A stretch of DNA of 55,468 nucleotides, the filler included, from Stramenopiles sp. TOSAG23-6 (lineage: Eukaryota), in assembly GCA_900128565.1 (NCBI GenBank). It is 4 parts of 4 records of this genome, joined end to end, with 100 filler letters (N's around TTAATTAATTAA, not from the genome) between each part and the next. Parts side by side here need not be neighbours in the genome. Positions count along the whole stretch, not along the records: positions 27,881 to 41,640 come from LT636159.1; 3 more parts are not named here. The stretch is one strand, 5' to 3'. How positions within the stretch are numbered: the first letter of the stretch is position 1; each line of letters begins with the position of its first letter. A model generated the notes under the pieces. The model searched no databases. It was not told the origin of the DNA and worked only from the letters and a program-made list of their open reading frames with translations. This document shows positions 9,930 to 48,164 of this stretch, one piece after another. The position numbers and the translations under genes are program-made.

Positions 9930-12900
9930 ATGTTTTCTAGTCTTGGCGCACTAATAGGTGCATATCCTGAAGAAGAAGATGAAAATAAGCAGTCCAGTCC
10001 CATATCGCCTCGTGATATGGACACAGCAGAATACAACAAACGGCGGCATGCTTTTCGAGCAGCTTCAATAAGAATAAATAGTGCAGTTATAGATAACGAC
10101 TTCCTATCTGAAAACGATGCTGATTTCTCTCATTCTACTGAAGCTTCTACTACGAATGATGTTTCAATAGATGTACTTTCATCACCCCAACCACGTGGAT
10201 TTTATTCCGAAGATTCCGAAAACAAGTTCGACTTAAGTAAAGTTTCTACTCAATCGAAATCAAGGTTAAATAGGCGGAAAGACGCCAATACGTTGGCTTT
10301 TATCCCCTTGGGTATATTTTTGATGCCAATGCTCTTTATACGAAATTTTGGTCGAACAATAAAGCTTTCTCCTGGGATGGTACATTATAATGAATTTTAC
10401 TCTAGGAAAGCTTGTCAAGAAAATAATTTAGAACCAGATGGATTACAAATCGTTGTTAGGTCAGGAAACAAAGGATTTCAACTGTTGTTTGGACTTTTAT
10501 TTTTTATATCAACGTTATGGGGTTTTTATATTTATGCTATTTATCGTGCTTATTTTAAAACAATCAAACATCAACAGTTGACTATATGTGCATGTTTCAT
10601 CATTTCAGCATTAATAATTGATATTGGGGAAACGCTATTTAGTTTAAATGGGATATGCGAAGGTAGTTGTATTTTTCTGATTGCGTTTGTATATACGATT
10701 CCAAGGTTGACATTTGTGCAAAGTGTGTGTACGGCAATGGGTATCTGGTTCAGCTATAACTTTTTAGCTTTATTTTTTATACATGAAGAAACCTGCCTTG
10801 GACGTGATCCAAGTGCTAAACTTTATCTAGCCATTATCCAATTAATGTATGCCATAGCTTTTGCTTACCCTGGTGATTATGTATTTAGCATTATTCGAAA
10901 GGACACTGCAATGAATGAACAAGTAAAATTAAAAGTTGCAAGTTATGAGCAAGATAAGCAACTATTCAATACTTTATTAGATCAAATTTTGCCAATGGAA
11001 AAAGTTAGAGATATAGTGGAAAGTGGTTCCACCGTGGCAGATCAAGTCTCGAATTGCACTATAATGTTTTGTTTTGTCACAAACATAGAAAATCCGTCGA
11101 TAAAAAAAATGGATCAACACATTCATCTGAATGCATTGTTTTCTAAATTTGATGAAGTAATTGATGATTACGAGACTGTAGAAAAGATTAAAAATATTGG
11201 TTGTGTATATATGTGTGTATCAGGAATTAAAAAAGGTGCAAAAAAACATGCTGAAAATATGCTGGATTTTTGTCTATGTATCACACAAATAATTCAAAAA
11301 TATACAGAAAAGACGACTGACTTACACACTGTTCCCCTCCATTGGAAAATTGGTCTTGCTAGTGGCCCAGCTGTTGGTGGAGTTATTGGTGGTGATAAGT
11401 TTACATATGATGTTTTTGGGGATACAGTCAATCTAGCATCGCGGATGCTTTCGAACGCTCCAAAGGGTCGAATAATGACTACAGAAAAGACTAAAAATGT
11501 CCTACAGAATACATTCAATTGGATTCCCCATCCAAAAGGTAAAGTATTCCTCAAAGGTAAAGGTATGACTCCGGCATTTTTCATCACTAGTCGCAAAAAG
11601 GGAACAATGCCTCTTCGTTCTCTCCGATCTCGAAATTCTAGAAGAAATTCTAAAATTTCTTTTCTCAGGAAAGGTATTTCACAATTGAATTCACAATTGA
11701 ATATTGTTGTGCCTGATAATAATGATCATAATACACTAATAACTGATGAAGAAACTGGTGGTATTGAATTAACTACTTCGAGACGAAAGTTTCCTACAAA
11801 AAAATCATCTTGTGTTGAGGAGTCAGAAAGAAAGAAATCTTGGGCCATCGAGGATAAAGATCAAAAGGAAAAAATAAAGAAATCACTTTGGTATGAAAAG
11901 TCTTGGTCTGCTGAGAAATCTGAAAAAAATCGCGATGAAACTTTTTTTCCTATGAAAAATATGAAAAATATGAATATAGAGGAAATATTAAATATGAATG
12001 AAGAAGATTCTTTACAGGTCACTGGTTGGTTTATTTTACCTTTTTGTGTTGCTTTTCGCAAATTACATTGGAAATTACTTCGATGTTTTGAATGTCTTCG
12101 AAATCGAACTAGTCAAAAATTAATATATAAATTAGATAAACTGATGGAATTAGAACGAAATTTTAGTCTGCAGAAGAAGAAAAACAAACATAATGTTGCG
12201 TTGTGGGTGTTATCCTACCTCTTCGTTGATGTATGTTTGCATGCATGTACTCGACTTTTTATTGTATCAGATTTCTTGACGAACGACTTTGATGTTAAGC
12301 AAAGTGTTTATACTCAAATTGCAGATGTAGCCATGTGGTTATGGATTGTACCTACAATGCTTTTATTCGGAATATGCTTGCTTCCTAAAAGAAAGAAATA
12401 TGAATTAAGTGATTACGGATTCGAAGAGACGTCAAAACGATTTTCTAATTATAACATATCATCAATGGAGAGTGTATACACCTATGTTGATGAATCGAAA
12501 AAAAATTGTCATATAAACACAGTTTCATTTCTGTGTATGATATCTGTTGGACTGGCACATTTATTACAGGTTGCTGTTGAGCCACACTTTACATTCTCGT
12601 TAATCATTTATTTTATATTTACGACGTTATTTGAATTAATTTCGTTTGAAAGCATGCTGTTAACCAACTTGATAATTTTTTCTCTTTACCCGGTTGCGGT
12701 TGTATATTCACCGAATTCGAAGGTAATTACTCATTTTCGAGTTCCACATATGTACNTTTTATTTTTTATTTATTTTTTTTATAGTAAATTTCGTACCTAA
12801 CAAATTTAAAATTTTTTTTTTATTTTTTTTTACAAAAAAATCGATTTTATTTTTTTTATAGTAAATTTCGTACCTAACAAATTTAAAAAAAAATTTTTGA

Positions 12901-13823
12901 AATATTTTTTCAAAATACATAGTATCTCAAACGGATTTGGTTTTGGCGTTTTTAGAATTAGCAATTCCGACACTGACTGTCTGTATTTGTTGCGCGTATT
13001 CTTCTTTGAGGCATGATCGTAAACGTTTTATTCAACTAACTGAACTTTTGAATGAAGAGGATTATGTCAGAAAAAGAAGAGATAATGCGCAACGACTACT
13101 AGAGAAAATCCCGATACCATCTCATGTAATAAAAGACCTTAGAGCTGGACGTCCCATTTACACTGAAACATTTGCGACTGTTTCGTTTGCTGATATTGTC
13201 GGATTCACCAAATTTTCAGGTACAGTTACGGCAATACAACTTGTAAAAATACTGAATACAATGTTTTTAAAATTTGATAAACTTGCAAAACATCATAACG
13301 TGGAAAAGATTAAAACTATCGGAGATTGTTATGTGGCAGCTACTGGCTTATGGGAGGTGAAAGATAATCATACATTTAACTTTGATTCTCCTTGGTCTGA
13401 TGAATCCAATGCCGCGTTAGGATTTGAAATGAAAACGACTCGCTCCAACATAGCAAATCACGCCGTTTTAATGATTCGATTTTCTTTAGATATCCATCGT
13501 GTCATGTTGGCTCTTAATGCTGAGTTTGACTTGAACTTAGTGATTCGATCAGGAGTTCATACTGGACACGTCGTCGGTGGCGTCATTGGATCAAAACGTC
13601 TTGCCTTTGATATTTGGGGTGAAACTGTAGATTTGGCAAATGCTTTCGAAACTAAAGGTATTGGTGGTCGTGTTCATTGTAGTGAAGCTACACGAAATCG
13701 TGCTTCAACTGAATTTGTCTTTGAAAAAAGAAAAGAGCTTATTGAATTACATTTACCAGAAAGAGAACCAATTAAAATTACAGGATTTCTTGTCTTGTCA
13801 AGTAAATTTCCACTCCAGAATAT
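9930..13823 (+). CDS. Membrane class III nucleotidyl (probably adenylyl) cyclase with two catalytic domains; exons 9930-12751, 12921-13823; 3' end cut by contig end
   Basis: Two TM blocks, each followed by a cyclase domain (EKIKNIG...YDVFGDTVNLASRM; FADIVGFT...EKIKTIGDCY...FDIWGETV). Confidence 0.88.
12752..12920 (+). other. GT-AT family intron (169 nt) with duplicated branch-point block
   Basis: CAT AT|GTAC...TTTCGTACCTAAC (twice)...GAAATATTTTTTCAAAATACAT|A GTA. The AG two bases later would frameshift. Confidence 0.78.
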
Positions 13824-20460: not shown

Positions 20461-23400
20461 ATGGCTAAAACGGCAAAACAGAATAGAAAGAGTCGACCAA
20501 AGGGGCAGAATAGAAAACCTGTGCGTCGATTGCCAGAATCTATTATTGCACGTAAGAAAGCTGAAAGTGTGAGTCAACAAGCTGAACTCAGTCCAAGTTT
20601 AATGAACAGTTTGATGTCATCATCGACTACTAGCTATGGCACTATAAATGATACCACAGATTCTCCTAATAGTAATGGAACTATTCTGCTTTCTGTCAGT
20701 TCAAAGCGAAGTAAAAAAAAACCTCATGGGCAGAAAAAGCGTAAGTTTATTTCCCCAATAGAGAAACAGAAAAGAATGAAACAAGCCGCAAAAATGAGTA
20801 AAAAGAAACGTAGGAAACTTATTAAATTACAGGAGAAGAAAGAAGCCGATGCAAAACGTCTTGCGATTTACAAATCTCTTAGTGAAACGGCAATTAGTAC
20901 TGAAGAGCAAAAACTTTTGCTTCCTTCTGGAAATATTGGACAACTTGGTAGTAAACGTGAACGTGTTAAACGTGCTTTCCGGTTAAATAAAGCTGGTATT
21001 CCACTGACAAACGAAGAGACGGAGATTCTTCTAGTTAGAAATGATAAAGTTGGATCGAATTCGAGCAACTCATTTAAAGAAAAAAGCAACATATGTAGTG
21101 TTTCAAAGGAAACTATTTTTGATGGTAAAAAAAGACCGGATAATATTGAAAATTTCGCTTCGCAAAACGAAAGTATCAAAGATCAAAGTATAACTAAAGA
21201 AGAATGCAAAATTATTAAAGCTAAAACTGAAAGTGAAAAAGATTGCAATATTAGAGTGGCTGAATTGAAAAGTAAGAAAGAAGCAGCAAAGAAAGAGGCA
21301 TTACTCCTAAACCGCGCTAAAAACATAGCTATAATTAAAGCCCAGAAAAAAGAATTACACCGTGTACAGAATGCACCTACAACATGTGTTGTACATATTG
21401 ATCGCAACCCTGAAATCCAAGAACAGAGGCTAAAACTTCCTGTATGTGGAATTGAGCAAGAAATTATAGAATCTGTTCAAAACAATGATGTAATTATTCT
21501 ATGTGGTGCTACGGGCTCTGGTAAAACAACACAAACCCCTCAATTTCTTTATGAAGCAGGTTATTCAACAGCAGCTACAAAACGGGGTATGATTGGTGTG
21601 ACGCAACCACGTCGTGTAGCTGCTATGTCAATGGGTACAAGAGTGGCAGAAGAACTCAATACTCCTCTCGGTAAAAGAGGATTTGTATCGTATCACGTCC
21701 GTCATGATTCATCAGGAGTTCATGATGGTACTCGTATTAAATTTATGACAGAAGGTGTATGTTTTATTCTTTTTCAAATTCGAATTTTTTTTTCGTACGA
21801 CATTTTGTACCTAACGAATTTTTTTTGAAATATTTTTCCAAAAAACATATTCTACTGCAAGAAGGGTGCCGAGATTTACTATTAAAACAGTATAGTGCAA
21901 TTATAATTGATGAAGCTCATGAACGGAATTTGGATACAGATGTTTTGCTTGGCTTATTATCACGTGTCGTACCACTGCGAAGACAAATGTACGATGCAGG
22001 TGAAGTTTGTCCTGGTGAAAATTTCGTTTTACCACCACTTAAACTTATCATTATGAGTGCTACATTAAAAGTATCTGATTTTATCGATAATAAGCGATTA
22101 TTTTCGAAACCACCGCCTGTGATAAAAGCTGATTCGCGAAGACATCCAGTGACGATTCATTTCAATCGAAAAACTCCTTTGAATGACTATCTTAAAAAAG
22201 TTGTAAGTAAAGTTGGAGCTATACATAAAAAATTACCAGAGGGGACAATTGTTGTTTTTCTTCCTGGTCGAAAAGAAATTGAATGGGTTTGTAGAAAGTT
22301 AAGGCGAAAATATGGCCATCGAGCAAATATTGACTGCCAGATGTCAATGAGTGATGAAGATTCTTTTGATAGTGATATAAGTATGAGTGGTGGTGAAAGT
22401 GGTGATGATATTGAACCTGATCAAATGAGAACGCCAAATGAACACTCAAATGAAACATCTACAAGTAATTTGAATAGTGAAAAGATTGAAAATTCTATTG
22501 CAAACGCTGAGACTAATGTTGATGATGTAGATACCAGTCCGATAGATGATATTGTTGTTATTCCAGGGACAATTGAATCATCAAAGTCATCAGAATCAAT
22601 GGACGAGGAAAACAACGGATCTTTATTAGGACCATCAAAACCATCGACGATGCCTATGCATGTACTTCCAATGTACTCTATGCTTCCAAAACAAGCACAA
22701 ATGAAAGTATTTGAACCACCTCCACCTGGGCATCGATTAGTTGTTGTTGCCACAAATGTTGCAGAAAGTAGTATTACTATACCAAATACTGTATATATTG
22801 TTGACTCTGGACGTGAAAGAAACCGCGTGTATAACGCAACTTCTGGAATATCTACATTCGAAGTAAATTGGATATCAAAAGCATCAGCAGATCAACGTGC
22901 AGGTCGTGCAGGCCGTACTGGTCCAGGGCATGCATATCGGTTATATTCCTCAGCCGTTTTCAATGATTATTTTAAACTTTTTTCTCCTCCAGAAATTTTA
23001 GCAACACCATTGGAAGACGTTGTCATTCATTTAAAAAGACTTGGTATTCATCACGTGTCTGCTTTCCCTTTTCCATCAGCTCCACCCGTATCGAATATTC
23101 GACAAGCCTTAGTTGATTTATGGAATTTAGGATTGCTCAATATGGAAGGAGATTCGACATCAAATAGTCAAAAGTTCATAGATAATGTAAAGTATGAAAA
23201 CAATAGTACATCTAAAAACACATCAAATATTTCCAGTAGTATTAACAAAATGAATGAAGTATTAAACGAAGCGAAATCACTTCGTTCAAAACACTTAGTA
23301 AACAAGGTGGGAACAAAAAATCAAGTTTGTGGTGCAAATGATGATGTTATTCATCAAAGTCTTCAACTAGACTTTGCGAAACTAAAAGATGATGGCGAAT

Positions 23401-27880: not shown

Positions 27881-29614
27881 GCAATGTGTAAAGATAAATT
27901 GTTTCTTCAAGACACAGTTGAAAGTGCCTCAGCAAAGGTCGGCGGTTTATCATCAGAGTTACGTGTAGAGGCTCTTGCCTTAGCTCGTAAATTGAATCCC
28001 GGCTTAAAAATGTGGACAAAGACCGATTGGGATCACCGTCGAAAGGTAAAGGAAGCAATGGAGAAACATGGTAATGAGATCAACTCACCTTGGATTGAAG
28101 TTTATGATCCCGGAGAAAAAAGTTTTTATTATTGGCATCAAGAAACACACGAGACAACATGGGAGCAACCAAAGGGATACAAAATGTCATGTGATGACTC
28201 AATTATGAGTTCTGCAATACGAATTCAAAACTTTTGGAGAATAGTTTTAGCTCGAATTCGTACCAAAATAAGAAAGACAGTATTTGATATGAATGTGACT
28301 AAGACCGCATTGATTGAACAGATTTCGGCGAGTAGAACAAGACAACACAAAAATGAAGAGATTATTTGTGATTGGGTAGAATCATTTGACTCTGAAAATG
28401 ATGCATATTATTACTACAATTATGCTACAGGAATGACAGTTTGGGACAAGCCCTCTGATTATGTGATGGCAGCAGATGACTTACTGTTTAAATCTGTCAT
28501 AAAACTACAATGTGCATATCGTTCTCGATGTGCTTATCGCAAATTTCATAGAAAGAAAATGAATCACACATTCTTAGAAAAAATAGCAACAGAAAAGTCG
28601 TTGAGACTCTCAGAAATATCAGCAGAAGCAACATCATATGCTGATATGTTATCAGATGAATTAGTAACTGTCGTTGTTGGACCCGGACAATTAGGTTTGC
28701 AAATGAAAGCTGGGTCTGATGGTTGTGGAGTTATTGTGAAAGGATTTGTCCTTACTAAAGCAAAAACGTTTTCCCGAGCAGGTGTTACCATTGGTATGAA
28801 ATTAGTGAGGGTAAATGGTCGAAATGTCGCATTGTCTGCATTTGGCGAAGTTTTAGATTACTTTAAGAAACATGCAGCGGACCCAAAACGTTTAGTATTT
28901 TGCTCAGCGGAAAAAGATGTTATTGAAATTGCCAACGAAATGGATTCGCTAAGAGAGCTTTGGGCAGCCAGAAGAATTCGTAGAATATGGAACCAGCGCA
29001 AAGCCAACAAAGCGTATAATGAAGAAAAGTTGAATAGATTAATTGAGATCGAGCTGAACACCGAAGCTGTTTTGATTGTTGTACCAACTGGGGAGCGTCT
29101 TGGTGTGGTTCTTGCTCCTTGTCCACAATCACATAGTAAAAATAATACAAAAAAATCGAATATTCCAATCGAAGCATGTGTCAAAGAATTTATCGCTGTT
29201 GGCAGGTCACATGATGGAAAAGCTATCATGGGGTCCATTCAAAGACATGGAGATGTATGTTTTATTTTTTTTTCAATTTCGAATATTTTTTTTTCGTACG
29301 AAATTTTGTACCTAACAAGTTTTACATTTTTTTTTTTTTTTTTCACAAAACATGTACAACTTGGAATGAAGCTCAGCAGTATCAATGGTGTTAGTACATT
29401 GGGTATGCCAACTGCTGATATTTTTGTAGCATTGCGCAAAGCTAGTAATTATTCACAATTTAATCAAGTGGGAACATATTTAGTATTTGGTGAAAAGAAT
29501 AGTAATGATCTTCGATTAGAAGCTGCTAATTTCATCAATTCACAACTTCGAAAACAATCTAGATCTTTTAAAAATGCTACATCGAAGTTGAAATATATTC
29601 TCCGCAAACCTTAG
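27881..29614 (+). CDS. WW / IQ / PDZ-like multidomain protein (5' truncated); intron 29255-29353
   Basis: Two WW domains (W...YYWHQETHETTWEQP; YYYNYATGMTVWDKP), IQ-like IQNFWR/LQCAYR, and PDZ-like GQLGL...GMKLVRVNG. Confidence 0.78.
   Translation, partial: AMCKDKLFLQDTVESASAKVGGLSSELRVEALALARKLNPGLKMWTKTDWDHRRKVKEAMEKHGNEINSPWIEVYDPGEKSFYYWHQETHETTWEQPKGYKMSCDDSIMSSAIRIQNFWRIVLARIRTKIRKTVFDMNVTKTALIEQISASRTRQHKNEEIICDWVESFDSENDAYYYYNYATGMTVWDKPSDYVMAADDLLFKSVIKLQCAYRSRCAYRKFHRKKMNHTFLEKIATEKSLRLSEISAEATSYADMLSDELVTVVVGPGQLGLQMKAGSDGCGVIVKGFVLTKAKTFSRAGVTIGMKLVRVNGRNVALSAFGEVLDYFKKHAADPKRLVFCSAEKDVIEIANEMDSLRELWAARRIRRIWNQRKANKAYNEEKLNRLIEIELNTEAVLIVVPTGERLGVVLAPCPQSHSKNNTKKSNIPIEACVKEFIAVGRSHDGKAIMGSIQRHGDVCFIFFSISNIFFSYEILYLTSFTFFFFFFTKHVQLGMKLSSINGVSTLGMPTADIFVALRKASNYSQFNQVGTYLVFGEKNSNDLRLEAANFINSQLRKQSRSFKNATSKLKYILRKP
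29255..29353 (+). other. GT-AT family intron (99 nt, in-frame, stop-free)
   Basis: GGA GAT|GTATGT...TTTCGTACGAAATTTTGTACCTAAC...CACAAAACAT|GTA CAA; removal gives PDZ-like GDVQLGMKLSSING. Confidence 0.8.
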
Positions 29615-29784: not shown

Positions 29785-30789
29785 TCATTCATTATCAACT
29801 TTCAATTGATCGGGTGATGCTTCGTTGACAAGAGCTCGAGACAACGCAAACATCGGGTCAATGTATTTTGGAAAAATATTTCAAAAAAAAAAAAACTAAA
29901 ATTTGTTAGGTACAAAATTTCGTACGAAAAAAATAAATTCGAAATTGAAAAAAAATAAAACATACATGAGTGGAACATCAAATAATTCCTTTTCAGGTAA
30001 AGCAATTGGGATTTCAGTGCAACCTAAAATAATAACTTCTGCACCCATATCTTTCAAATCATTTACGCAGTTAACAAATATATTTCGTGCTTTTTTTGTG
30101 ACGGGAAATGTTGCTTTTACACCCCATTCTGGATTATAAATTGCGTCATGTAATGTAGATTGCGCATCATTGGAGACTTCAATGAATTGAAATTCACAAA
30201 GTGTATCAGGGTATACATTTGATAAACGAGTACCACTGGTTGACATTAATCCAACTTTTTTTGTTTTTGGAGAAACTTTGCGAATGAAGTTTGCAGTTTC
30301 ATCAATCATGTGCAACAATTTAACGTTTGGTAAAGTGGATATTTTTTCTTTAAAAGGATCCCATATCACCGATGCATGAAATGTGTTACATGGTACACCT
30401 ATAACAACGTGATTACTTCTATTTGTAACATTACTATTTACCGCAGAAAATATTGAATTAACTACTTCAAACATTGCATCACCAGGATTTTCCAAGTCTT
30501 CTCCTTTCTTCTGTGTGATAAAATTTGTACGGTCTGGAATTATGCGAGATTTAGATAAATGAAATATATCGAGATGCCCTTGATCACCGCCTCCAAGAGT
30601 TAACGTGTTTTCTATTATCATTTTGTGTAAAAGGCAACCAGCCATTGGGCCGACACCTCCGGCTATACCAATTGCAGACTGAGCAGCCGAAGTCGCAATA
30701 GTATTCCGAATATTCCTTTGAAACAAATCATTCTTCCCAATGTAGCACATACGATGCATAATGCGACGATATAGTATTGGAACGATCAT
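29785..30789 (-). CDS. PLP-independent aspartate/glutamate racemase family protein; exons 30789-29966, 29860-29785
   Basis: IGIAGGVGP, IPDRT, PCNTFH and LGCTEIP catalytic cysteines; spliced C-terminus VPLIDP. Confidence 0.88.
29861..29965 (-). other. GT-AT family intron (105 nt)
   Basis: Minus strand CTC AT|GTATGT...core...GAAATATTTTTCCAAAATACAT|T GAC CCG. Confidence 0.83.
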
Positions 30790-31611: not shown

Positions 31612-32396
31612 ATGAGACTTTGTCTTGGAGCGGCTTCACCACTTGGTCTAAACTCCTTACTAAGAACATCAATACAACAAGCTATTATTGTATGAGCACG
31701 TGTAGCCATTGATACAGGAAAACTTTCACCCAAAGCGCCTAAAAGGCGAAGCATTTTCCCTCGAAGGTTAGCTCTATCATGCTTTGTGCTCCCGACATAA
31801 AAGTCATAGATCACCTTGATCAAGGATGGAGCACCCAAGGTAACACTATCAAAGATCTGCAATTTTACTACTCGATAAATTGGGCTTAATGCCTGCTCTT
31901 TAGCTGAATTATTTGGTTCCCTTCGGAAAGCTTGAGAACAAACACTAATCATACGCACTGCTGACTGACCAATGTCTGCCGATAAAGCATTAACGTACGA
32001 ATCAAATAAATCATATAAAACACACCGCGCAGCCTCCAGATCTTTATCTTTACTTATCGATGAAGCTAAGGAGCTATCGATAAATTCAAGTACACTTGGT
32101 GGGCTTTTTGACACAAATAAGAGGGAATTACAGAGAGCTATTCGTGTTGCAGACTTAGATTCGGCCTCTTGCATGACTCTCTCACTTAAAGTATGCGCTA
32201 TATCGCACGCGCTAAGCATATACATTTTATCATCTCCCTTTAGTGTAACATGTAGATTTACTAATAGCTCCTGTATATTGTCATCTACTTGTTCAGTAGA
32301 AGTCATTTTAAGCTCTCTACTAAGATTTTTTACACTGTCATGAAGATGGCAGAATTTTGAGATGTTTTTTCGGTACCTTCGATTAAATTTTGACAT
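31612..32396 (-). CDS. PRKDC: N-terminal HEAT region of a DNA-PKcs-like protein (continuation unresolved)
   Basis: KMLRLLGALGESFPVSM...KEFRPSGEAAPR resembles recalled DNA-PKcs KVYELLGLLGEVHPSEM...REPK; the rest of the ~4000-aa protein is absent. Confidence 0.55.
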
Positions 32397-32585
32397 TTNG
32401 ACCGAGAAAAAAAAAATTTTTTGGCACAAACCTGGAAAATGAGGATATATATAGTCAGCGGCTGTCGGATCCATCTACTACGCCTACCTATATACAGCTA
32501 AAGGCGGTTGTAGATATATACTAACCAACAAACCAATTTACAAAGGCGATTTGTTATAATTGGAACGGGTATAGATATCTCAGAA

Positions 32586-35411
32586 ATGGTTAAACACAAA
32601 ACTAATCTCGAGAATCCATGGGATGGTGAGGACTGGCAATCTGTTGATGTCACTATGGAAACAGCCATGTCTTGGAGTGAAGGGGGATTTCTCGGTCTTG
32701 AAGTTTTAGATGGCAGCACTGTTGAAGTAAAGAAGGGTAAAGGTGGAGTATGCACGATCAAATCCCGTAGGCCAAAGAAAACAAGTAAGCGTAAGCGTAA
32801 GAACACAAGCAAATCAATGTCTTTTGATTTGTCTTCAAAAAGTACGACAATTCCGAAAGACTATGCAACAGGAAAGCCATCGTTGTCAAAAGATGTAGAA
32901 GAATCTCCTTTGATAACTCGTCCTTCAACTATCGACAGTAAGGAGGAATTACGCTCTATAGATGCCCAGATAGCTTTTCTCGAAGCGAAAAAAATTGATG
33001 CTCAGATCAAAGCGTTACAGGCAAAGAAATATTCGCTCACTAAAAGGATAACAGTGACAACTAATTCAGCAAATTCTGAGTCTGAGCCTAATCCTAACAC
33101 TCAGAAAGAAAAGTGTAATAATGTAAATAGTACAACAGTATCAAGTGAAAAGAAGAAGAAGAAACGCAAACGTGACCGAAGTAAAGAACGAGCAGCACGG
33201 AAACGCCGCAAGGCATCTGGAATTACAGTAGCTGAAGAGCGAAAATTATTGAAAAAGAATTTATCTGGTACTGTTCAGAAAAATACGAGAAACAATTCGT
33301 TAGGTACGGAATTTCGTACGAAAAATCATTGTGACATGAGTGCGTGGGAATCTCTTAATCTTCACTCAGATCTTATAGCTAATTTGCAAAAATTAGGTTT
33401 CGATACCCCAACTCCGATACAACTTAAATGTATTGCTGCTGCTGTAACGACAGGCAAAGATGTTCTTGGTGCTGCTGAAACAGGATCCGGTAAAACTCTT
33501 GCGTTTTCATTACCGATTCTTGTACGTTTTAATCTTGAATTTCGAATTTCAATTTTTTTTTCATACGAAATTTCGTACCTAACAAATATTTTTTCTTAAA
33601 ATTGTTTTTTCACAATACATCATCGTTTATTAGAAGAACGTGACATTTTTGAAGCAAAACGAGCACGAGATACTATGGATGGTATTGTAGAACAAGAACA
33701 ACAATCTGAAGATACACGTCTTCGATGTTTGATCATTTGCCCTACTAGAGAACTTGCACTTCAGGTAACCCGTCATATTATAAAAGTATCATGTGATACT
33801 GGTATTAATGTTATGGCTCTTGTAGGTGGTATGGCACAAGTGAAACAGGATCGATTACTTGCGAAACGTCCTGAGATTATTGTTGGAACTCCTGGACGTT
33901 TATGGCAATTAATGAGAGATGGTCAAGAGCATTTAAATGATCTTTCAGCAGTTAATTTTCTAGCAATAGACGAAGCGGATCGAATGGCATCTCCTGGAAG
34001 TTATCCAGAATTAAAAATGATTTTTGAAAAATTGAAAAAATCAGATGAATTAGTTGAATCAGGATCAATGTTTAGTAGAAAGGCGCAAATGTTTAATGAT
34101 CTCGCTGATTTTGATGACGATGTAGTGAATTTGTCTGAGGATGATGAAGATGACATTGTATCTAGTGATGTGAATGATGATGTAAATGAAGAAGAAAATC
34201 GTACAAATTCATTACCAATGAATGCTGTTTCTCCAAATACTCAAAAACAAAAGAAACAATTAAAGAAACAAGGTCGAAGATATAGTAGAGTACATCGCCA
34301 AGTACTTCTCTTTTCAGCAACTTTAACAATTGGTCAAGAAGGACGTGAACAACGAAAAAGTAACAAAAACAATAATCAAAATGTACAAAACTCTGGTAGT
34401 ATTGATAAGAATATTTATTCTTTAGCTCTTCTTTGTGGTTGTGGCAAATTTTCTACACCTGCAATCATTGATGTTACTACGGCATCTACAAAAACACCAT
34501 CCAAGACTGAAATAATTCAATATGGGAAAAAAAAATCTCAATTTTCACTTCCTGATGGTCTTGAACTTTGTCAAATATTTTGTTCGGATGATGAGAAAGA
34601 TGCATATCTTTATTATTTTTTTTCAGAATATGCTGGGAGGACACTTATTTTTGTGAATGCTATATCACATGTAAAACGATTAACTGTTTTATTACAACTT
34701 TTGAAACTTCCTGCGTACTCTTTACATGCAAAAATGCAGCAACGTGCGCGCCTTAAAAATCTTGATCGATTTCGTGCAGAAAAAAATACTATCTTAGTTG
34801 CGACTGACGTTGCTGCTCGTGGATTAGATATTCCTTTAGTGGAACATGTTGTTAATTATCATTTGCCACGATCTACTGAATTATTCGTTCATCGTAGTGG
34901 ACGTACAGCTAGAGCAAATACAGAAGGAATTAGTATTTCGCTTGTGGCAGCACAGGAACAATCTCTATATAGAACAACATGTAATGTTTTAGGAATGCCT
35001 CAAGGTCTTGCTGCGTTCCCTGTAGATTTGTCTTCTATGAAACAATTACACACTCGTTGTAATATAGCCAAAAAATTAGCAATTTTACAAGTAAAACTTT
35101 CTAAAAAAAAAAGTAAAAATAATTGGTTAATTCAAGCTGCAAGGGACGCTGATATTGTTATGGATGAAAATCTTCGACACGAAATGTCTAATAATGGTTC
35201 TGATGAAAAACGTCAAAAAGTTTTAGTTGCTCAATTAGCAGCGGAAATGAATAGACCTTTACTTGGTCGAGTCAGAGGAGGGATGTTGAAGGTTAAGGTA
35301 GCACATGCCGAAGCAAGTACAAAAAAGAAAAGATCTCAGGAAAAAGCGAAACTAACACGAAAAGCAGCAAGCGATCTCCGATATTCCGGTTCAATGAATG
35401 GATTTAACTGA
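32586..35411 (+). CDS. DDX24: DEAD-box RNA helicase DDX24/Mak5; exons 32586-33521, 33621-35411
   Basis: [10 protein letters not shown]-terminal motif, [46 protein letters not shown]. Confidence 0.92.
33522..33620 (+). other. GT-AT family intron (99 nt)
   Basis: ATT CTT|GTACGT...TTTCGTACCTAAC...CACAATACAT|CAT CGT; contains a stop and no AG; no upstream AT, so an AT-AC reading is impossible. Confidence 0.85.
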
Positions 35412-35563
35412 TATAAATTTAATAAAGAAGAAAAATAAAAATAAAGATTTACTCGCAAACAGAATTGAAACTTAATGTACAATGTCTCTCAACGTCAACA
35501 ACAAAACAGCACCCAATCTCAATCGAGTTCTCTTACATCATTCCTGTGATAATTTTATTTTTA

Positions 35564-38010
35564 TTAATCCTTGTACATATTCTCCTTTCTCGCAATCTTC
35601 GCTTTTGACTCGGTAGTTCTACGTAGATGTCTCGTAAAAGATGTACTTGCACCATTTGAATAAAGGTCCTTAGCAAGATCCGAAAGATCATTCATTGAAC
35701 TTTCGAAATCGAGTCCATTAATCGTGTTTCTAATTGCTCGCCCGTTCAATCCGGCAGCTTTTTCACCTTCAGGCGTATCCGGATATACAAAACACATAGC
35801 CCCGGGTAATCCAGGGGGGGCAAAGCAAGAAAATATCCCATATCTCGCCTTATAATCAAAATAGGTGAAGTCACCCAATACTTCAGGAAGCACATGAATG
35901 ATCACTGCATCACCAAGCACTGCACACGATTCCTGCTTTATCTTTGTTAGCGTTCGTTTTTCAGTGAGAAGACAAGCAGCACGAGCATTTGGTTTACTAT
36001 CGGTTCTGGAAAATTCTCTCTTTACAAAAACAATTTTTATTTCACCCTCCAATCCTGAATTTTCTCGTCTTGACGTTTCAATAGCTAGCTTATCAACAGA
36101 TACATCAAATACTGTATTCGCAATGTTTGCTATACAGCCATTGACATTTGTACTCGACGACACAAACGTTGCATAAGGCATTTTAGATGAATCACCAGGA
36201 AACACAACAATAGAAATTAAATTACCTCGATGTTCACTTCGTCGCTTTGTTTTACAAACCTGTTTGTGGGAATAATTGTGCATTGTTGACTTACCTTTCC
36301 AGTCTAGTTTTTGACCTATGTTGATTGTTATAAAGAATGAAATATTAGTTAGTACACAACTTGTGAATATCATAGATGAAATCTTGGATTCTGTCAAATA
36401 ATGCTCCAATGTAACGTACACGTTTTCCCACAATATTTCACGGATTCACATCTTCCGCAGCTAAAAAATGTATTTTTTAAAGATTCTTTTGTTCCACAAT
36501 TTGCACATATATTTACAGGCATAGGCAATTGAATAATCCGACCAGTATTAGCAGCATCTTGACCTTCTTCGTCCTCTGACTCATTATATGCACCTGCCGC
36601 ATTTTGTCTCTCACGAAATTTTGCACGCATTTCAGGTTGTTTTTCCAATACTTTCGACTGCATTGTCACTCCTTTATCCTCCTCTTGCTGTTCCATTATA
36701 ATTGTTCTACCACATATTTGATCCTCTGAATACGACTGGGTTACCCAAAAGGTCGCAAAAATCGAGCCTTGATCAGCAAATTCTTGAAGTTTCTCTTTCG
36801 TTGAGAGATCCCACATCTTTTCATCATACAGAAATCCCTCCGCTTTACTAGCATGTTTCATTCTCCCATAGCCATATCGCAATTTTTCCCAACCTTTCAG
36901 AACCTTTTCTAACTCTAACCTTAATGCAGACTTGTCTTCTACAAGCCTAATCAAACGTTTCAATTCCTTGCGAATAGTTTTAAACCGTAAGATAGAGCTC
37001 CAAAACTGTTGCGGGTCTACCGCTGCAAATATAGTTGGTTCAAGGCGGTTCGTGTCACCAATAGCCACAGCGGTTCTTAAGTACATTAAAGCCTCCTCAG
37101 GACCATAATCAAGAAATCTCTCTTGACGTGCAACAGATTTTTTTGTCTTGTCAGCAGAAAGGTGCATATATCGCACCTCTAAAGAGTCGTCACGCTCAGG
37201 ATGTGGACAGGGGTATATTAAGTAAGAGCCGTTAGTCACGGCACCCATGCGCTCTGCGGAAAGGTCTTCCTTAGCATCGCGAATGCGATGAGGTGTAAAC
37301 TTACCATAGATAGAGCCTTTTGCTTTTTTTCGTCTTGCAATTGATTTACGTAGAAGTGCATCATCATCGGCAATTTTACAAAAATTAGCCAAGATTGATT
37401 CATCGAGAAGCGGAAAATCATCATTGCACTGGAGTTTATTACAATATCTTGCAACATTTAAATCGGTAAAGTCTAGAACAACTTGTTTCGAGAGAGGTGA
37501 AGTATGAACTAAGCCTGAAATTGCCATTTTCAAGTTACCACGAAACCGACAGCAATCCCCAGAAAGATACTGCCGATCAGTTTCTTGCCCAAGGATGCAA
37601 ATAGCATTGAAGTTTTTCGTTCGCAGATTTTTACGGCCTACACCAACACCACATGGTGTGCACTCTAATATATCGAAATTCGCAGGTTGCAGTGATTTTT
37701 TTCCTTTTTGACCGTCTAGATGACATGCAAATCGTCCATTAGTCTGCTTGTTAATAATTTCACCTACACTGCCATTACATTTACGACCGGTCTCACTCTT
37801 TAACCCATGCACACAAATCAATGAACGAGGTTTTGGTCCCATCCCTTGACTTACAAGAAACTGGCGGTATTCCTCAGGAGTGAAAAATGATTTCAAAGCA
37901 TCCCAGCCTTTCGGACTTTTTGTGCACTCACCTAGAAGCCTTTTGAATTCTGCTTTTCGGCCTTCCTGCATCATACTCAATAATTTCTCGAATTCTGCAT
38001 CATTTCCCAT
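35564..38010 (-). CDS. MYND zinc-finger protein; exons 38010-36420, 36315-35564
   Basis: CANC...CGRC..VKYCGKT-C|QKLDW...HKQVC after splicing; N-terminal VHGLKSETGRKCNGSVG motif. Confidence 0.8.
36316..36419 (-). other. Canonical GT-AG intron (104 nt) with TACTAAC branch point
   Basis: ACG T|GTACGT...GTACTAAC...AACATAG|GT CAA restores the MYND Cys; ending at the preceding AT would create a TAG stop. Confidence 0.85.
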
Positions 38011-38284
38011 GATCAAAGAATAGCAAACTGGTTAATTAAATTTTCTCTTTGAATGGATGGATACTACTGGAAAAATATAGTTTAAAGAAAAGAAACAAAA
38101 TACTAGTAGATTGAACTGGATCAACATTTATATAAATCCCATTATTTCGTGTTTTGTTGACTAGCAAAAGTAGCAGATGTCTTACATCATTCGCGGATGG
38201 TTCTTCTTACGCAAGAAAGACATAGATCATTACTGAATTGGGATTTATTCACGTGTTTTTACCCACGACATTGTTATCACAAGT

Positions 38285-38920
38285 ATGGCACTTCCTGCAA
38301 AACTTGGTTTAATGATTCTAAAGGTTGGTGTAAAGCCATTTGCGAATGCTTTAAAAGAAAGAGCTGCCACGAATGAAGCCTTCGCAAAAACTTGTGCTTC
38401 ATTGGGCCGAAGGGCCACTCGTATGACTGCTTATTTAAAAATTCGCGCAGCTGGCCATGAACCCAAGGTAATTAAGGACACATTATCTAACAAAGCCGCG
38501 GTGAAGCGGGGTAGTGAAGTAATTGCTGAGCTCCTAATATTTAGTATAGTGGGTACAGCTACAGTTGGTGTATTTTCCCAAAAGTCTTACCAGGAAGAAA
38601 TAGAGAAGAAAGAAAAAGAAGAAAGGTTGGACGCTAGATTTAGAGCTTTAAGCGAGTCTGTAGATAAATTACAACAACAAATCAATGAATTGAGAAATAC
38701 TTTGGAAGATACGAAGGCCAAAGTGTCTGTAGAAAAATTGAAAAAAGGTGGTAATGTTTTGAGTGTTTCACGTGCAACCAAAGAAATTGAAGATAATAGG
38801 TCAATGTTGAATAGTAAGTTTTATTTTTGGTGGGATGATGCTTATGCATTGATGTGTTCAAGGATCAATGGCTTGGTGTATTCATGTGGACAAATGTTAA
38901 TGCAATGGTATCGATATTAA
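38285..38920 (+). CDS. OPA3: OPA3-like protein
   Basis: KLGLMILKVGVKPFANALK...AVKRGSEVIAELLIFSI, followed by a coiled coil. Confidence 0.82.
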   Translation: MALPAKLGLMILKVGVKPFANALKERAATNEAFAKTCASLGRRATRMTAYLKIRAAGHEPKVIKDTLSNKAAVKRGSEVIAELLIFSIVGTATVGVFSQKSYQEEIEKKEKEERLDARFRALSESVDKLQQQINELRNTLEDTKAKVSVEKLKKGGNVLSVSRATKEIEDNRSMLNSKFYFWWDDAYALMCSRINGLVYSCGQMLMQWYRY

Positions 38921-38953
38921 TATAAACTTTTCTTTGTAGACTTTTTTTAAATC

Positions 38954-39081
38954 TTTTATTCTTTTCGTTGAAGCAAAGAAGACGAGTTTTTTTTTTTTTT
39001 TTTTAAATCTTTTATTCTTTTCGTTGAAGCAAAGAAGACGAGGTTTCTTTTATTCTTTTCGTTGAAGCAAAGAAGACGAGG
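38954..39081. repeat. Three copies of the CEP44 3' end including its stop codon
   Basis: TTTTATTCTTTTCGTTGAAGCAAAGAAGACGAG x3, with a long T run between two copies. Confidence 0.85.
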
Positions 39082-41002: not shown

Positions 41003-41185
41003 TGTGTAGAATAACCCGGGGGTTCGGAATTCACGAAGCTCTCTTTTTTGGCTGTAAATTTTCTTCAATTTTTTTCTTGCCAAAATCTCCGTTTATTTCA
41101 AATTCGAAAATGTTGAGATTTTCTCAGAGGCAAAATTTTTACTAATACTAATAAATGAAACGATTATTATATAAGTCTACTACAT

Positions 41186-41352
41186 AATATTTTCAAGACT
41201 TTTTTATTTTTTGTTTTTTTTACCCTAAAATTTAAAAATATTTTCAAGACTTTTTTATTCTTTTTGGTTTTTCAAATATTTTCAAGACTTTTTTATTCTT
41301 TTTGGTTTTTTAAATATTTTCAAGACTTTTTTATTCTTTTTGGTTTTTTAAA
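41186..41352. repeat. ~37-bp repeat (AATATTTTCAAGACTTTTTTATTCTTTTTGGTTTTT, about 4 copies) spanning the NDUFAF7-like stop codon
   Basis: Visible direct repeats at ~41186, 41237, 41275 and 41313. Confidence 0.8.
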
Positions 41353-41485
41353 TGGTTAAAACCAGCAACATCTCCTTTTTCTGTAATGGCAAATGCTTTG
41401 TATATATGACCCATTTCCTGTGGCTCCATCAATCTTTTATATCCATCCACGATATTTTTTGCTTCTTCTTCATCAGCAGCATGCC
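41331..41485 (-). CDS. Terminal exon of an NDUFAF7/MidA-like methyltransferase (not in the ORF track)
   Basis: Manual translation HAADEEEAKNIVDGYKRLMEPQEMGHIYKAFAITEKGDVAGFNHLKNQKE* resembles the RL..P..MG..FK...GF C-terminus. Confidence 0.6.
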
Positions 41486-42052: not shown

Positions 42053-43288
42053 ATGCGCAGAGATGTGCTTTTATCTTGGGCATTATTGTTTGGAGTAAAT
42101 ATTATAGGGAATTTCATACTGATTCCTATAAATATGAATTTGCTTCTGCAGGCATTTTTAACTATTTACATTGGTGCGCATGATTCTTTATTAAACGTTG
42201 AGGAGGAAAATCTGACGATGGAGGATGCTGGTATGTTTCCTGTATTTGGATCTTTCATGTTGTTGTCTCTATATGTTGTATTTAAGCTATTTGACAAGGA
42301 ATATGTCAATATGCTTCTACTGGCATATTTTATTATGGTGGGTACATTTGCTCTTGCCAGTGCTATTTCACCATTAGTAAGATGTCTCCTCGGAAAGGAA
42401 ACCCAGAAGGAGAAAAAAACCAAGAAGGAGAAAAAAACAAATGGATCTAATCCTAACGCTTTATTCTGTGTAACAATCCCTCTTCCTAAATTTGTAGACG
42501 ATAAACCTTTGGTTATTTCTCCGGACTTTTCTCAAATTATTGCTTTTCTACTTGCTACCATCAACGCTACAGTATACCTAAAAACCAAACACTGGTGTGC
42601 CAACAATATTTTTGGATGTGTCTTTTCATTATCCGCAATCAAGCAAATTAAACTGGGTAGCTACAAAATTGGGTGCCTCCTTCTCATTGGACTATTTTTT
42701 TATGACATATTCTGGGTTTTTGGGACTGATGTGATGGTCACTGTAGCAAAATCGTTTGACGCACCCATTAAACTTCTCTTTCCCCGTGAGTTCGCCACAA
42801 TAGATACGAAAATGCAATTCTCAATGCTCGGTCTTGGTGATATCGTGATGCCTGGTATATTTCTTGCACTATTACTTCGATTTGATTTCAAAAAATCTCA
42901 GAAAGGAGAGATAGACTGTGTTGACTTGTCTGTTCGAGAAACGGCAACGTTTACTAAAACCTATTTTAACATTGGTATGATCTTTTATACATTGGGTTTA
43001 AGTACAACAGTTTTTGTTATGTATACATTTAAAGCTGCCCAGCCAGCTTTATTATATTTGGTACCTGCTTGTCTCTTATCGTCTTTCCTCCCAGCGTACG
43101 TTTTAGTTTTTTCAATTTATATCTAAATTTGTTTTTCGTACGAAATTTCGTACCTAACAAAACAAATTTNAAAAAAAAATATTTTTTCACAATTTATGTT
43201 ATTCTTTGGAGAAATTGGAAAACTTTTTGCATATGAAGACTTAACTATTGTCGTCCCAGAGGAAGACAAAAAGAAAAAGGATAATTAA
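42053..43288 (+). CDS. HM13: Signal peptide peptidase; exons 42053-43095, 43198-43288
   Basis: YDIFWVF, LGLGD and QPALLYLVP motifs; spliced tail PALFFGEIGKLFAYED...KKKKDN. Confidence 0.92.
43096..43197 (+). other. GT-AT family intron (102 nt)
   Basis: CCA GC|GTACGT...TTTCGTACGAAATTTCGTACCTAAC...CACAATTTAT|G TTA; contains a stop. Confidence 0.8.
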
Positions 43289-44816: not shown

Positions 44817-45934
44817 ATGATGACCGCATTAAGAAGGCGCATTTGTCATTTTTATTCGGGAATGACTAATCAACGTACATTATCTTCACTATCGTCTGGA
44901 AATTCTGGTCACGTATGTGTAAATGGTATAGACTTGCATTTTGTGAAAAGTGGCCCACCAGATCCGTTATGCATAGATGATAATCCAATCATTTGTATGC
45001 CTGGAGCTTTAGGAACTGCAGCCACAGATTTTTCTCCCCAGTTAGACAACATAAATGGCCTTGCAAATTCGCATGATGTTATTTCGTTCGATCCTCGGGG
45101 ATATGGAAAATCTAGACCTCCTGTTCGTGATTTCCCCCTTGATTTTTATCACAGGGATGCAGATGATGCTGCTGAGCTCATGAACGTTCTTGGCCACAAA
45201 AAATATACAGTAATGGGTTGGAGTGATGGTGCAATTAGTGCTGTCATCCATGCAGCTCGACATCCTGATCGTGTGAGGAGTTTAATAATATTTGGAGGTA
45301 ACGCCTTTTTTACAGCTGATGATATTGCTGCTTTCGAAGCAACTCGGGATGTTGAAAAATCGTGGAGTTCACGGATGAAAGACACACATACTCCTGTGTA
45401 TGGTTCTGACTTGCAGGACATGTGGTCAGGTGCATGTGATGCATGGGCTCGAATTCTTCATGAACTTGATGGGAATATGTACGCTTTTTAAATTAAATTT
45501 AAAATTGTTTTTTCGAAGAAAACAATTGAATTAAAAATATTTTTCACTAACAAAAAAATTGAACTAAAAATATTTTTCACAATATATCTGCGTCGATGAA
45601 GCACGATCTCTCCAATGTCCTACGTTAATTCTACACGGTGCGAAAGATCCACTTTGTCTTCAGACCCATGCAGAGTGGTTTCTAGACAATATTCCAAATT
45701 CACAATTGAAAATATTTCCTGATGGGAAGCATGTATGAATTATTTTTTTTCAAATTCGATTTTTTTTCGTACGAAAATTTGTACCTAACAAATTTTAGTT
45801 TTTTTTTTTTTTTGAAATATTTTTCCAAAATACATAATCTTCATTTACGTTTTGCTGATGATTTTAATAAAATGGTATCTGAATTTATCAAAAGTGTATA
45901 TATAGAAAAAGAGAAACAAACAGTAAACTTGTAA
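44817..45934 (+). CDS. BPHL: Valacyclovir hydrolase/BPHL-like alpha/beta hydrolase; exons 44817-45478, 45588-45732, 45836-45934
   Basis: PGALG, DPRGYGKSRPP, GWSDG nucleophile; spliced DGNI|C...CPTLILHGAKDP...GKH|NLHLRFADDFN. Confidence 0.9.
45479..45587 (+). other. GT-AT intron (109 nt, divergent family member)
   Basis: AAT AT|GTACGC...CACTAAC...AAATATTTTTCACAATATAT|C TGC. Confidence 0.8.
45733..45835 (+). other. GT-AT family intron (103 nt)
   Basis: AAG CAT|GTATGA...core...GAAATATTTTTCCAAAATACAT|AAT CTT. The internal TAG would add 37 nt and frameshift. Confidence 0.85.
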
Positions 45935-45997: not shown

Positions 45998-48164
45998 TCA
46001 CTTTTGAAAAGATGCGGGATTTTTTTCGTCTAAACCTTTCAATGGACATTTTCCTTCTTTTTCGCCATGAAATTGTTCAGTATTGCCACAAGTCCAACAA
46101 TAACGAGATTTACTACTTTCATTATCTATCTCGGGGTTATCACTACAGCTATTTTTATCTATATGTTTTCTATCTAAGACAATCACAGCGCTTGTACTAG
46201 CCCAACCAATACAATGGTCTACCATATAAGCAACACGAGGAATATAATATGAACCTACGGGAAGTTTTCGTTTCTTTTGTTTTCTCGATCGTTTCTTTAT
46301 ACCTTTTCCTTTTAAAGTAGTACTATTCGTAGGAGCATCATCACCAATTAATTCAGATTTTGCAATTTCTATTTCAATATTACTATCAACATGTTGACAT
46401 TTGCTGGTGAGTGTCTTTTTGAAATCATCAGTTTTTTGTTTCTTCTTTGGGGGTAATACATCCAAATCATCAGAATTACTATTGTCTATTTCAGTATTTA
46501 CTTTTTGATTTTGAAATGGTGAAGGCACACAAAGTGATGTCAAATCGTGTACCATTGTATTATGTGATGCAGCAACTTGTTGAGGAAAGTCGCCTCTACC
46601 CCAAATACCAGAAGTCTCAGAGATATATATAATTTTATCTACATACTCACAGGAGCGAAGTGCGTCGACAATATTTTCAGGTATTTTAGAACTACAAATT
46701 CCATTTTGACCTTTACACTGCAAAATGACAATATTTTGTGTTTTCTTGATTCCATTAGTAGCTTTTAATTTGTTTTTCTTTGCTGCTTCCTCAAATAAAT
46801 ACAAATTTTGAATAATAGAAGAGGGGTTGCCAACTTCTATACTATTCAAAGAGTCAGAATATCCATTTTTTTTGACGAATGAAGAAAATTGACTAGAATC
46901 AATAATAAAGTTTTCTCTGTAGTGAATATGCATGTTTGATACACTATTCGTAGTACTATCAGTATTTTCATTACTATTTAATATTGCACGATTAATTGTA
47001 CCAAAAAGATTCGATATACTCTGATCTCGCGATACATTCAAATCATCACAATTTCGTAAGTTTTCATCTTTGATGATATTATTTACAGGCTGAATTGGAC
47101 AACAGACTGAACCCCTTTGTATACTTTTAAGCCAATGTGGTAATCCAGTGGCGCAGCTATCCAAACCCAAAAGAGAAATTGATGCGAATGTATTTTGGGA
47201 AATATGTCAAAAAATGTTTTTGTTAGCTACAAAATTTGTACAAAATTTGGTACAAAATCGAAATTTGAAATGAATAATAAAACATACACCTAAGTCGTCT
47301 GACGACTCTCCTAAGTGCCGATGCAACACCAATCAGTTTCAGTGAACGTTGTAATTTGATAGAAACTTTCCTCCAATCATTTTTATCAAATTTTGAAGTA
47401 TCTTGATCTACACGTGCAGGGTAGCCACCCTCCAATAAAATGCCACATGGACCTGAAACTTTTGCTGCGCGGATTTTTTTTTCCGAAGCATTAACAACAA
47501 GCTCATATTCAACTCTTTCAGATTGACGTAATTGACGAAAATGGGTAGGTTTGCATAAAAGAGCACTTTGGTGGACAAATATTTCGTCGCCACCATCATC
47601 GGGTTGAATGAAACCCATGCCTTTCTTTCTATTAAACCAGAGAACAGACCCTCGAAATTTGCCGAATATTGTGTGCCACAGAGGGCAAAACTCCACAACA
47701 TGCCTCCCATGTTGTGCTGAGACACATCCTTTACAATTGCATGGTGTGTCTAATATTCGTACGTATACTGCGTCACAGGATATGTAGAAAAATCCTGGTC
47801 TGTAATCAGCATAACCTTCCGGACGATTATTGTGCACTGAGTACACACCAGGAGGTGGGTTAGGGCGATCAGAAACACTACATTTCTGTCGATATAGCTT
47901 AACACCCGAAGGAGACCATAATTCGTCGTAATATTTTCTTTTATGGAACTCTGTAAAAGAATGCTCCTCTATTTGGTCTTTCTTGAATTCAAAGTAAGGA
48001 CCGTGATCGCCTAGCAACACTCTCTCGTAACCTCTAGCCAATATATTTCCTCCAAAATCAGAGAAAAATACATCCGGTGAACCTTCCTCGGTGACACAAA
48101 GCTTTGACTGCACTAAAAAAAGATCGCGAATTCTATTCTCAAGGCCAATACAAGTAGAAGTCAT
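45998..48164 (-). CDS. Cold-shock-domain protein with unknown N- and C-terminal domains; exons 48164-47288, 47187-45998
   Basis: CSD FRGSVLWFNRKKGMGFIQPDDGGDEIFVHQS; removing the intron joins two ORFs in frame (RLR-F-ASISLLGLDS). Confidence 0.75.
47188..47287 (-). other. GT-AT family intron (100 nt)
   Basis: Minus strand AGG T|GTATGT...TTTTGTAGCTAAC...TTTCCCAAAATACAT|TC GCA. Confidence 0.78.

Follow-up and report, generated by a model that had tools for sequence, protein, structure and literature searches.

An AG-ending intron beside a family of GT-AT introns in Stramenopiles sp. TOSAG23-6: branch motif, 3' box and a candidate rewritten U1

The window analyzed here, a stretch of 55,468 nucleotides (filler included) joined from four records of the Stramenopiles sp. 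TOSAG23-6 assembly GCA_900128565.1, is gene-dense eukaryotic DNA of about 35% GC. The signal peptide peptidase predicted in it has its best match in EukProt GSMAST32 (87% identity), and unnamed records come next, ahead of oomycetes and other protists; we read the name GSMAST32 as denoting the marine stramenopile group MAST-3. A MYND-finger gene on the minus strand is divided by a 104-nt intron ending in AACATAG, and introns of a repeated family that end mostly in AT, here called the family, lie in other genes of the window. The features are as follows (slashes mark predicted splice junctions).

35564..36315, minus: coding exon 2 of the MYND-finger gene, with the second half of the finger and a conserved domain of unassigned function
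36254..36507, minus: MYND finger, split by the intron 36419-36316; spliced YCGKTCQKLDW...HKQVC
36316..36419, minus: intron, 104 nt, phase 1, GT-AG, predicted from sequence, reading frame and gene-finder
36316..36322, minus: AACAT, then the AG acceptor; first AG past the branch, without the family 3' box
36348..36354, minus: branch motif TACTAAC, presumed branch A 36349, 33 nt from the intron end; full match to canonical U2 GUAGUA
36412..36422, minus: donor CGT/GTACGTTA, family-type, pairing with the variant U1 5' end
36420..38010, minus: coding exon 1 of the MYND-finger gene, closing in ...AAA ACG T; the first ATG in its frame lies at 38010
12752..12920, plus: family GT-AT intron, adenylate/guanylate cyclase gene; one N at 12756
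21757..21848, plus: family GT-AT intron, DHX37-like helicase
29255..29353, plus: family GT-AT intron, WW-domain gene
29861..29965, minus: family GT-AT intron, racemase
33522..33620, plus: family GT-AT intron, DEAD-box helicase
43096..43197, plus: family GT-AT intron, signal peptide peptidase
45479..45587, plus: family GT-AT intron with CACTAAC, without TACCTAAC or palindrome; counter-example to a branch-motif code
47188..47287, minus: family GT-AT intron with TAGCTAAC; second such counter-example in the window

The intron 36419-36316 reads ACGT/GTACGTT...TACTAAC...AACATAG/GTC on its own strand and contains neither TACCTAAC nor the palindromic core of the family, so that an earlier note on this DNA was correct about its TACTAAC branch, its missing core and the TAG stop that an AT end would create. 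A cut at the AT (36318) produces this T/AG stop and a product of 537 aa, compared with 787 aa for the AG cut, both counted from the start of the stop-to-stop frame. The AG cut is the only one to give together the full frame and the Cys present in all five homologues; these were found by exon 2 alone, in each of them the finger is unbroken and has Cys-Gln where the junction falls, and zf-MYND was confirmed in all four of the five that were scanned. Against a profile of the five homologues the GT-AG product scores 91.0 bits, versus 32.0 for the AT cut (which meets the stop), 38.4 for the unspliced reading and 69.4 for a later AG. A GT-AT alternative with both ends shifted 2 nt upstream (AC/GTGTAC..CAT/AG) is also in frame; it was rejected, as it replaces the Cys with Gly, scores 86.6 rather than 91.0 bits, and has a donor that fits U1 at 5 rather than 9.5 of 11 positions. 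The spliced product aligns with P0123 over residues 72-722 (E 1.6e-102). Two gene-finders place the same junction, one without a splice-site model giving the same frame class and one with such a model giving the exact ends. A U1-complementary donor, a U2-pairing branch motif and a frame-restoring YAG (the TAG end) are all present, and the reading frames confirm 36419-36316 as a real, ordinary U2-type GT-AG intron. A candidate second intron at a GTAAGT within exon 2 was discarded, the homologues being continuous there. Metagenome contigs contained no orthologous DNA for the MYND gene, and protein searches for its orthologue returned no match.

Four metatranscriptome runs, available as contigs only and with shares of 0.06-0.17, were compared with 27881-41640. 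No spliced joint was found in these contigs at any intron in that interval, in any of the four runs, and coverage was DNA-like: intergenic DNA was covered too, the depth over the repeat core was thousands of times the unique depth and near its copy number, and two contigs (X1, 36372-36563, and X2, 36388-36848) cross the 36419 donor unspliced. Because no intron shows a joint and repeat depth approaches copy number, these contigs are uninformative on splicing.

The cyclase intron 12752-12920 presents the reverse case. It contains TACCTAAC twice (12794 and 12871) together with an intact 3' box, and the AG just past it (12921-12922) is out of frame. Removal as GT-AT yields a protein of 1259 aa with two cyclase domains, and removal as GT-AG one of 980 aa; the four other GTs in frame with this AG are located either 217-244 nt into the exon or within the intron. 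Judged by its reading frame, the cyclase intron must end at AT. The two introns make a clean test pair and, as the earlier note had proposed, a useful internal control, with AG compulsory in one, AT in the other, and the competing dinucleotide two bases away in each. Besides the cyclase intron, two boxed family copies end in CAT/AG or TAT/AG.

The family was surveyed in the genome assembly of 21.1 Mb, whose 6236 contigs include fold-back duplicates, so that raw counts are inflated by duplication (fold-back contigs G000:C2, C4, C27 and C115, and duplicates such as C13/C14, are as seen in amplified single-cell assemblies). Introns were analyzed in a sample of mostly long contigs, 917 kb in all and 878 kb after duplicate masking. 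The family core, CGTACGAAATTTTGTACCTAAC with at most one mismatch, has 5206 genome matches against 0 for the control, and 0 in viral contigs. Removal from GT to AT is in frame in 20 of the 21 testable seeds among 45, with frames taken from codon usage on each side. To count ends, the family 3' end was placed by a weight matrix that omits the last two letters. The sample yielded 274 predicted introns; filtering on flanks, donor and Ns left 184, a strong box was present in 156 of them, and 143 of these boxed introns were in frame, the other 13 being out of frame at the box. Four boxed copies are 2 nt out of frame (G000:C1 +22994, C2 +15420, L107 and C50 +17661), and in the first of these the frame is restored, with one and the same product, by moving either the donor 2 nt upstream or the cut 2 nt downstream. 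The gene-finder's low-score bin, which is biased to AG by its model and holds false introns, was left out of the counts. The comparison set consisted of seven hand-picked non-family GT-AG introns; donor-plus-TACTAAC matches numbered 85 (with repeats), fewer than the 222 of the control, so no count of non-family introns is given.

The 143 in-frame boxed introns end in AT (116), TT (9), AG (7), AC (3), AA (2), GT (2) and four single dinucleotides. Their donor is CAT/GTAYGTTT, with T at +7 in 141, C or T at +4 in 140 and T at -1 in 130 of the 143, and the family has a terminal inverted repeat, GTAT...ATAC. Non-AT ends equal the last two letters of the exon in 13 of 27 cases, where 20,000 permutations gave at most 7. 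On this basis the family is a MITE-like introner, GTAY...ATAC, with a 2-nt target-site duplication, the second copy of which, mostly AT, serves as the acceptor. Where the exon end is not AT, copies with a perfect box have 5 matched and 2 AT ends and copies with a worn box 8 matched and 24 AT ends (p=0.03), while pairs with a non-AT exon end and an AT intron end outnumber the converse by 26 to 9 (p=0.006). Given this excess and this asymmetry, and taking box wear as a rough proxy for age, selection seems to preserve AT at the intron end or to favor its gain. Donors other than GT occur among the 143 introns as AT (8), GA (2) and GC (1), and one family copy starts in AT and ends in AC, with its exon end also AC.

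It had been proposed in the earlier note that the extra C of TACCTAAC, or else the palindromic core, directs introns to an AT pathway, perhaps via a variant U2, and that branch motif should be tabulated against acceptor. Between classes this tabulation does show an association, TACCTAAC being present in 111 of 143 family introns and in 0 of 7 non-family introns, but such an association follows from shared descent of the repeat sequence. Within the family none is seen: TACCTAAC accompanies 87 AT and 6 AG ends and other motifs 29 AT and 1 AG (p=1.0, 143 in-frame introns), which is the outcome that the note itself had set against its idea. Genome-wide, matches to TACCTAAC plus the 3' box number 3931 with an AT end and 193 with an AG end (4.7%; controls 0; raw counts). 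The AG-ended ones include G000:C28:19747-19785 and C26:12454-12494, and six TACCTAAC copies with an AG end are in frame in the sample. Two apparent further cases of TACCTAAC with AG were discarded, as C1 -15421 is antisense to a gene and C4 +778 is in frame at TT rather than AG. CCTAA is retained in 102 of 116 AT-ended copies, which would favor the proposal, but it is missing from the other 14, and AT-ended introns without it include 45479-45587 and 47287-47188 in the window and a 73-nt copy without any core. Of the AT-ended copies 33 of 116, and of the AG-ended copies 2 of 7, retain the palindromic core intact.

The converse combination also occurs, as one family copy (L149) has TACTAAC in the branch slot and an AT end in frame. 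Among ten TACTAAC-box loci, L149 is the only one with TACTAAC in that slot; an upstream TACCTAAC or TACCTGAC precedes it in eight and one is unclear, and 17 further TACTAAC-box-AT matches and one AG match are not counted as evidence. TACTAAC is also seen in the branch slot of the family copies C314, C451, C1300, C2777 and C3679. The search for a variant U2 complementary to TACCTAAC returned none: the sole U2 found, which aligns identically on two contigs, has the canonical GUGUAGUA, and its predicted pairing with TACTAAC is -6.1 kcal/mol versus -2.8 for TACCTAAC (one example each). The U2 branch-pairing region, U5 loop 1 and the U6 ACAGAGA all match the Rfam consensus. The idea of a code in the branch region is thus largely refuted by the DNA, and we consider it very improbable.

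The 3' box separates the two test introns more clearly. It scores 14.6 in the cyclase intron, compared with -10.5 (AG register) and -4.9 (AT register) in 36419-36316; by score the AACAT of the latter is no family 3' end, its -4.9 standing against at least 5.9 in 129 family copies, themselves selected at a score of at least 5. We infer that the box, present in the cyclase intron and lacking in 36419-36316, is a better discriminator than the branch motif. An earlier AG between branch and end is passed over in 36 of 124 AT-ended copies, mostly at 11-19 nt from the branch A, while the first AG past the branch is used by 36419-36316 and by five of the seven hand-picked non-family introns, the other two skipping it (relative to the branch motif as picked). 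The branch-to-end distance in the family varies from 33 to 48 nt (5th to 95th percentile; median 40) and so is no strict ruler. Pairing between the intron ends was considered as an acceptor signal and set aside as weak, with a median probability of 0.04 in family copies.

These counts remove the branch motif as the determinant and point to the box. A mechanism can be proposed in which canonical U2 would read TACTAAC, and CCTAAC less well, the extra C being a letter of the repeat and not a code, and in which the acceptor would be set by the 3' end rather than by the branch. Family copies carry a fixed box (AATATTTTTYCAMAATAC) and would be cut 2 nt past it whatever the letters, the two letters before the cut being the target-site duplication of the MITE-like introner, mostly AT; introns without the box, such as 36419-36316, would default to the first AG past the branch. 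It is probable that 36419-36316 is removed by the same major spliceosome as the AT family, with its acceptor chosen through the 3' box or this default. Our guess for the factor reading the box is a changed U2AF, by analogy with Fritillaria. No U2AF1-like gene was recognized among 16 CCCH hits (six loci read, the others judged by spacing) from a loose search of an incomplete assembly. In Prp8, the stretch matching human residues 1452-1611, where we place the 3' splice-site loop, has 4 differences from human in 160 residues.

At the donor, the component that appears to have changed is U1. A single U1 was found (G000:C1146:349-508, and at the same place on C6122; E 8e-12), aligned over all 166 model positions with a score of 54.1 bits, which is below the Rfam cut-off of 69.5, and it belongs to a 640-nt cluster of U5-U2-U1-U4 genes (G000:C1146:9-645; L053). 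Its 5' end is AAACGUACAUGG where the consensus is AUACUUACCUGG, with changes at positions 2, 5 and 9 that face +7 T, +4 Y and -1 T of the family donor, and it pairs better than the consensus end with 139 of 143 family donors. U1 with this changed end would pair with CGU/GUACGUUA at 36419-36316 and with CAU/GUAYGUUU in the family. For the 36419 donor the computed pairing is -12.5 kcal/mol with the variant and -2.1 with the Rfam-consensus end. Non-family introns have mostly AG/GTAAGT donors, and for six of them the computed pairing is -6.8 to -14 kcal/mol to the canonical end and -2 to -3 to the variant, although two of these six were picked by that motif. U1 appears to have been rewritten to fit family introns. 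The broader reading, of a single major spliceosome re-tuned to one introner in a MAST-3-type stramenopile, is put forward tentatively, at somewhat short of an even chance: U1 would have been rewritten for CAU/GUACGUUU at three positions, one of them opposite the last base of the exon, an element-borne 3' box would fix the acceptor of family introns, with U favored over G as the last letter, and AG scanning would survive only as the default for introns without a box, such as 36419-36316, whose donor already fits the new U1.

The fragmented assembly may lack a second U1, given how weakly the non-family AG/GTAAGT donors pair with the variant. This opens an alternative in which an unassembled canonical U1 serves the old GT-AG introns and the variant serves the family, so that donor type, not the box, would bias the acceptor. 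The far better fit of the six non-family donors to the canonical end speaks for such an arrangement, as do an assembly in 6236 contigs and the scoring of 41 of 253 U1 candidates. We consider it unlikely, because 36419-36316 ends in AG despite its variant-type donor, so that donor type cannot decide the acceptor. Moreover, the canonical end ACTTACCTGG matches the genome 24 times against 21 for the control, without a U1 at any of these 24 loci; the variant is the U1 that sits in the snRNA cluster; and the fit of the non-family donors is partly a product of choosing two of the six by the canonical pattern itself. In metagenomes, 111 pattern hits to the variant U1 included none resembling the snRNA cluster by blastn. 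Still less credible is an explanation in which family introns are excised in a different register (NN...AC, AT-AC-like), are handled by a minor spliceosome or are removed from the DNA, so that the contrast between AT and AG would be only apparent. GT-AT splicing does rest on reading frames, and AT-AC and GT-AT cuts give the same mRNA wherever both repeat copies are AT (90 of 143, the cyclase intron included). Where the copies differ, however, the GT register keeps the conserved residue, as in the peptidase intron 43096-43197, where it gives an Ala shared by 13 of the 15 most frequent homologue words, and the complementarity to U1 falls in the GT register. No U12 snRNA match was found in this incomplete assembly, and the donors are GTAYGT, from which the U12-type donor consensus, RTATCCT, differs. 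The mechanism we prefer keeps a single major spliceosome, and would assign acceptor choice to the 3' box or to the first AG.

By its letters, 36419-36316 is a hybrid of a family-type donor with an old-type branch and acceptor, since its donor fits the variant U1 while the six non-family donors fit the canonical end. The donor GTACGTTA agrees with the family GTAYGTTT at 7 of 8 positions; the exon ends in GT and the intron in AG, leaving neither a duplication match nor an AT. Its 104 nt had been described as a family-like length. Six of the seven non-family introns measure 97-127 nt, however, and the branch lies 33-39 nt from the end in five of the seven, so that a length of about 100 nt would be the norm of this organism and no sign of kinship. 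We think it likely that 36419-36316 is an old intron with a remodelled donor. That it is instead an old, decayed family copy, from which the C, the core and the box have disappeared and whose end has been converted to AG, a true intermediate, is possible but somewhat doubtful, and would be compatible with the mechanism favored above. Descent from the family would account for a donor unlike that of all seven non-family controls and for a mean pairwise score to family copies of 45.1, above all 150 spacer shuffles (37.4 +/- 3.0), or above all but 1 of 100 on repeat; in the repeat its z is 2.3, compared with -1.3 to 1.2 for six non-family introns, 2.8 and 3.2 for two decayed copies and 0.6 for one borderline copy. 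It would sit less easily with a family profile score of 9.2 bits, where members score 42-89: this value is reached by 16 of 500 full shuffles and 77 of 500 spacer-only shuffles, and non-family introns, which share the length and branch spacing, score 8-15 bits. The best pairwise score is reached by 13 of 150 shuffles, the GC content is 29% against at most 26% in family copies, and ageing copies seem to keep or gain AT, not AG.

A yeast-like consensus comprises a GTAYGT donor and a TACTAAC branch. In its GT, its TACTAAC, its use of the first AG past the branch and its TAG end, 36419-36316 resembles canonical U2-type GT-AG introns; the genome as a whole departs from the canonical yeast-like system in that the GT-AG type is a minority and the U1 found pairs with a pyrimidine at +4 and a U at -1. 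A standard U1 is reported to be kept in 69 Saccharomycotina species (10.1101/2022.06.08.495308). The same source describes co-evolved U1 in Entamoeba (AACAAAC) and Mastigamoeba (ACGUAC), the latter having the same core as here and the former an A at position 2 as here. In the sections of that paper drawn on, no change facing exon position -1 is reported, whereas here the change of C9 to A faces the T of the CAT target site.

The closest parallel for the intron ends is in Fritillaria borealis and F. pellucida, which are reported to have non-canonical, transposon-derived introns with AT acceptors at 34% and 44%, GT-AG in the minority and donors mostly AG (PMC13326754). There, a duplicated and divergent U2AF is described as reading the non-canonical 3' ends, and the U1 5' end is strictly conserved (PMC13326754). 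As far as that account goes, the two systems share a YAY that both precedes the donor and closes the intron, common AT acceptors, a GT-AG minority and a U2 spliceosome without U12; unlike Fritillaria, the present genome retains GT donors, is dominated by one family and has U1 itself changed. The introners of Micromonas and other organisms are described as MITE-like elements that contribute one splice site themselves and gain the other through the target-site duplication (PMC11282704, PMC12130899), and the family resembles those of Micromonas in its thousands of copies, its terminal inverted repeat (GTAT...ATAC) and an acceptor supplied by the duplication. In the Micromonas example as described the duplication gives AG, whereas here it gives any two letters, mostly AT; PMC12130899 also reports 3' sites AG and AC, and its main text mentions neither MAST nor stramenopiles. 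Non-canonical introners of Amoebophrya are reported to have inverted and direct repeats and variable ends with no dominant dinucleotide, and U1 was not found (PMC7789003). Repeated introns are common to that system, from what is described, and this one, in which U1 is present and end-to-end pairing is weak. In the literature searched, with subscription journals largely outside it, we found no paper on MAST-3 introns, nor a title on genome-wide GT-AT introns.

If the variant U1 is the working one, an snRNA would have followed the target-site preference of a transposon even on the exon side of the donor. For this lineage, gene models built on the GT-AG rule will be wrong, as in the nearest named protein to the peptidase, EukProt GSMAST32.ASY1.ANO1.2563.1, whose final residues, AYVLVFSIYI, come from reading through the unspliced intron at 43096.

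Several further observations were made in the course of this work. A worn family copy ending in AAAT lies in a TPR/DnaJ gene (window 2839-2950, plus) and has an in-frame AG 12 nt downstream, both ends keeping the frame, and a compound family element with two cores (31407-31611, minus) has a box end that misses the frame of the first donor by 2 nt. Lone family cores occur at 33306 (minus), antisense to a helicase exon, and at 1382 (minus), in non-coding DNA. Upstream of a gene at 29618-29680 (minus), GTATGT...TACTAACTAACTAAG may be a short GT-AG intron in non-coding DNA, its AG 8 nt past the branch motif. Elsewhere in the genome, G000:C73, C537, C2146 and C5808 contain repeated non-family GTAAGT...TACTAAC introns in tandem arrays, possibly a second small intron family. 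Telomere-like boxes (AACCCTAACCCTA) are scattered in the window at 7560-7596, 2013, 8617, 9642, 25924, 40288 and 41877, close to gene starts and within a short array.
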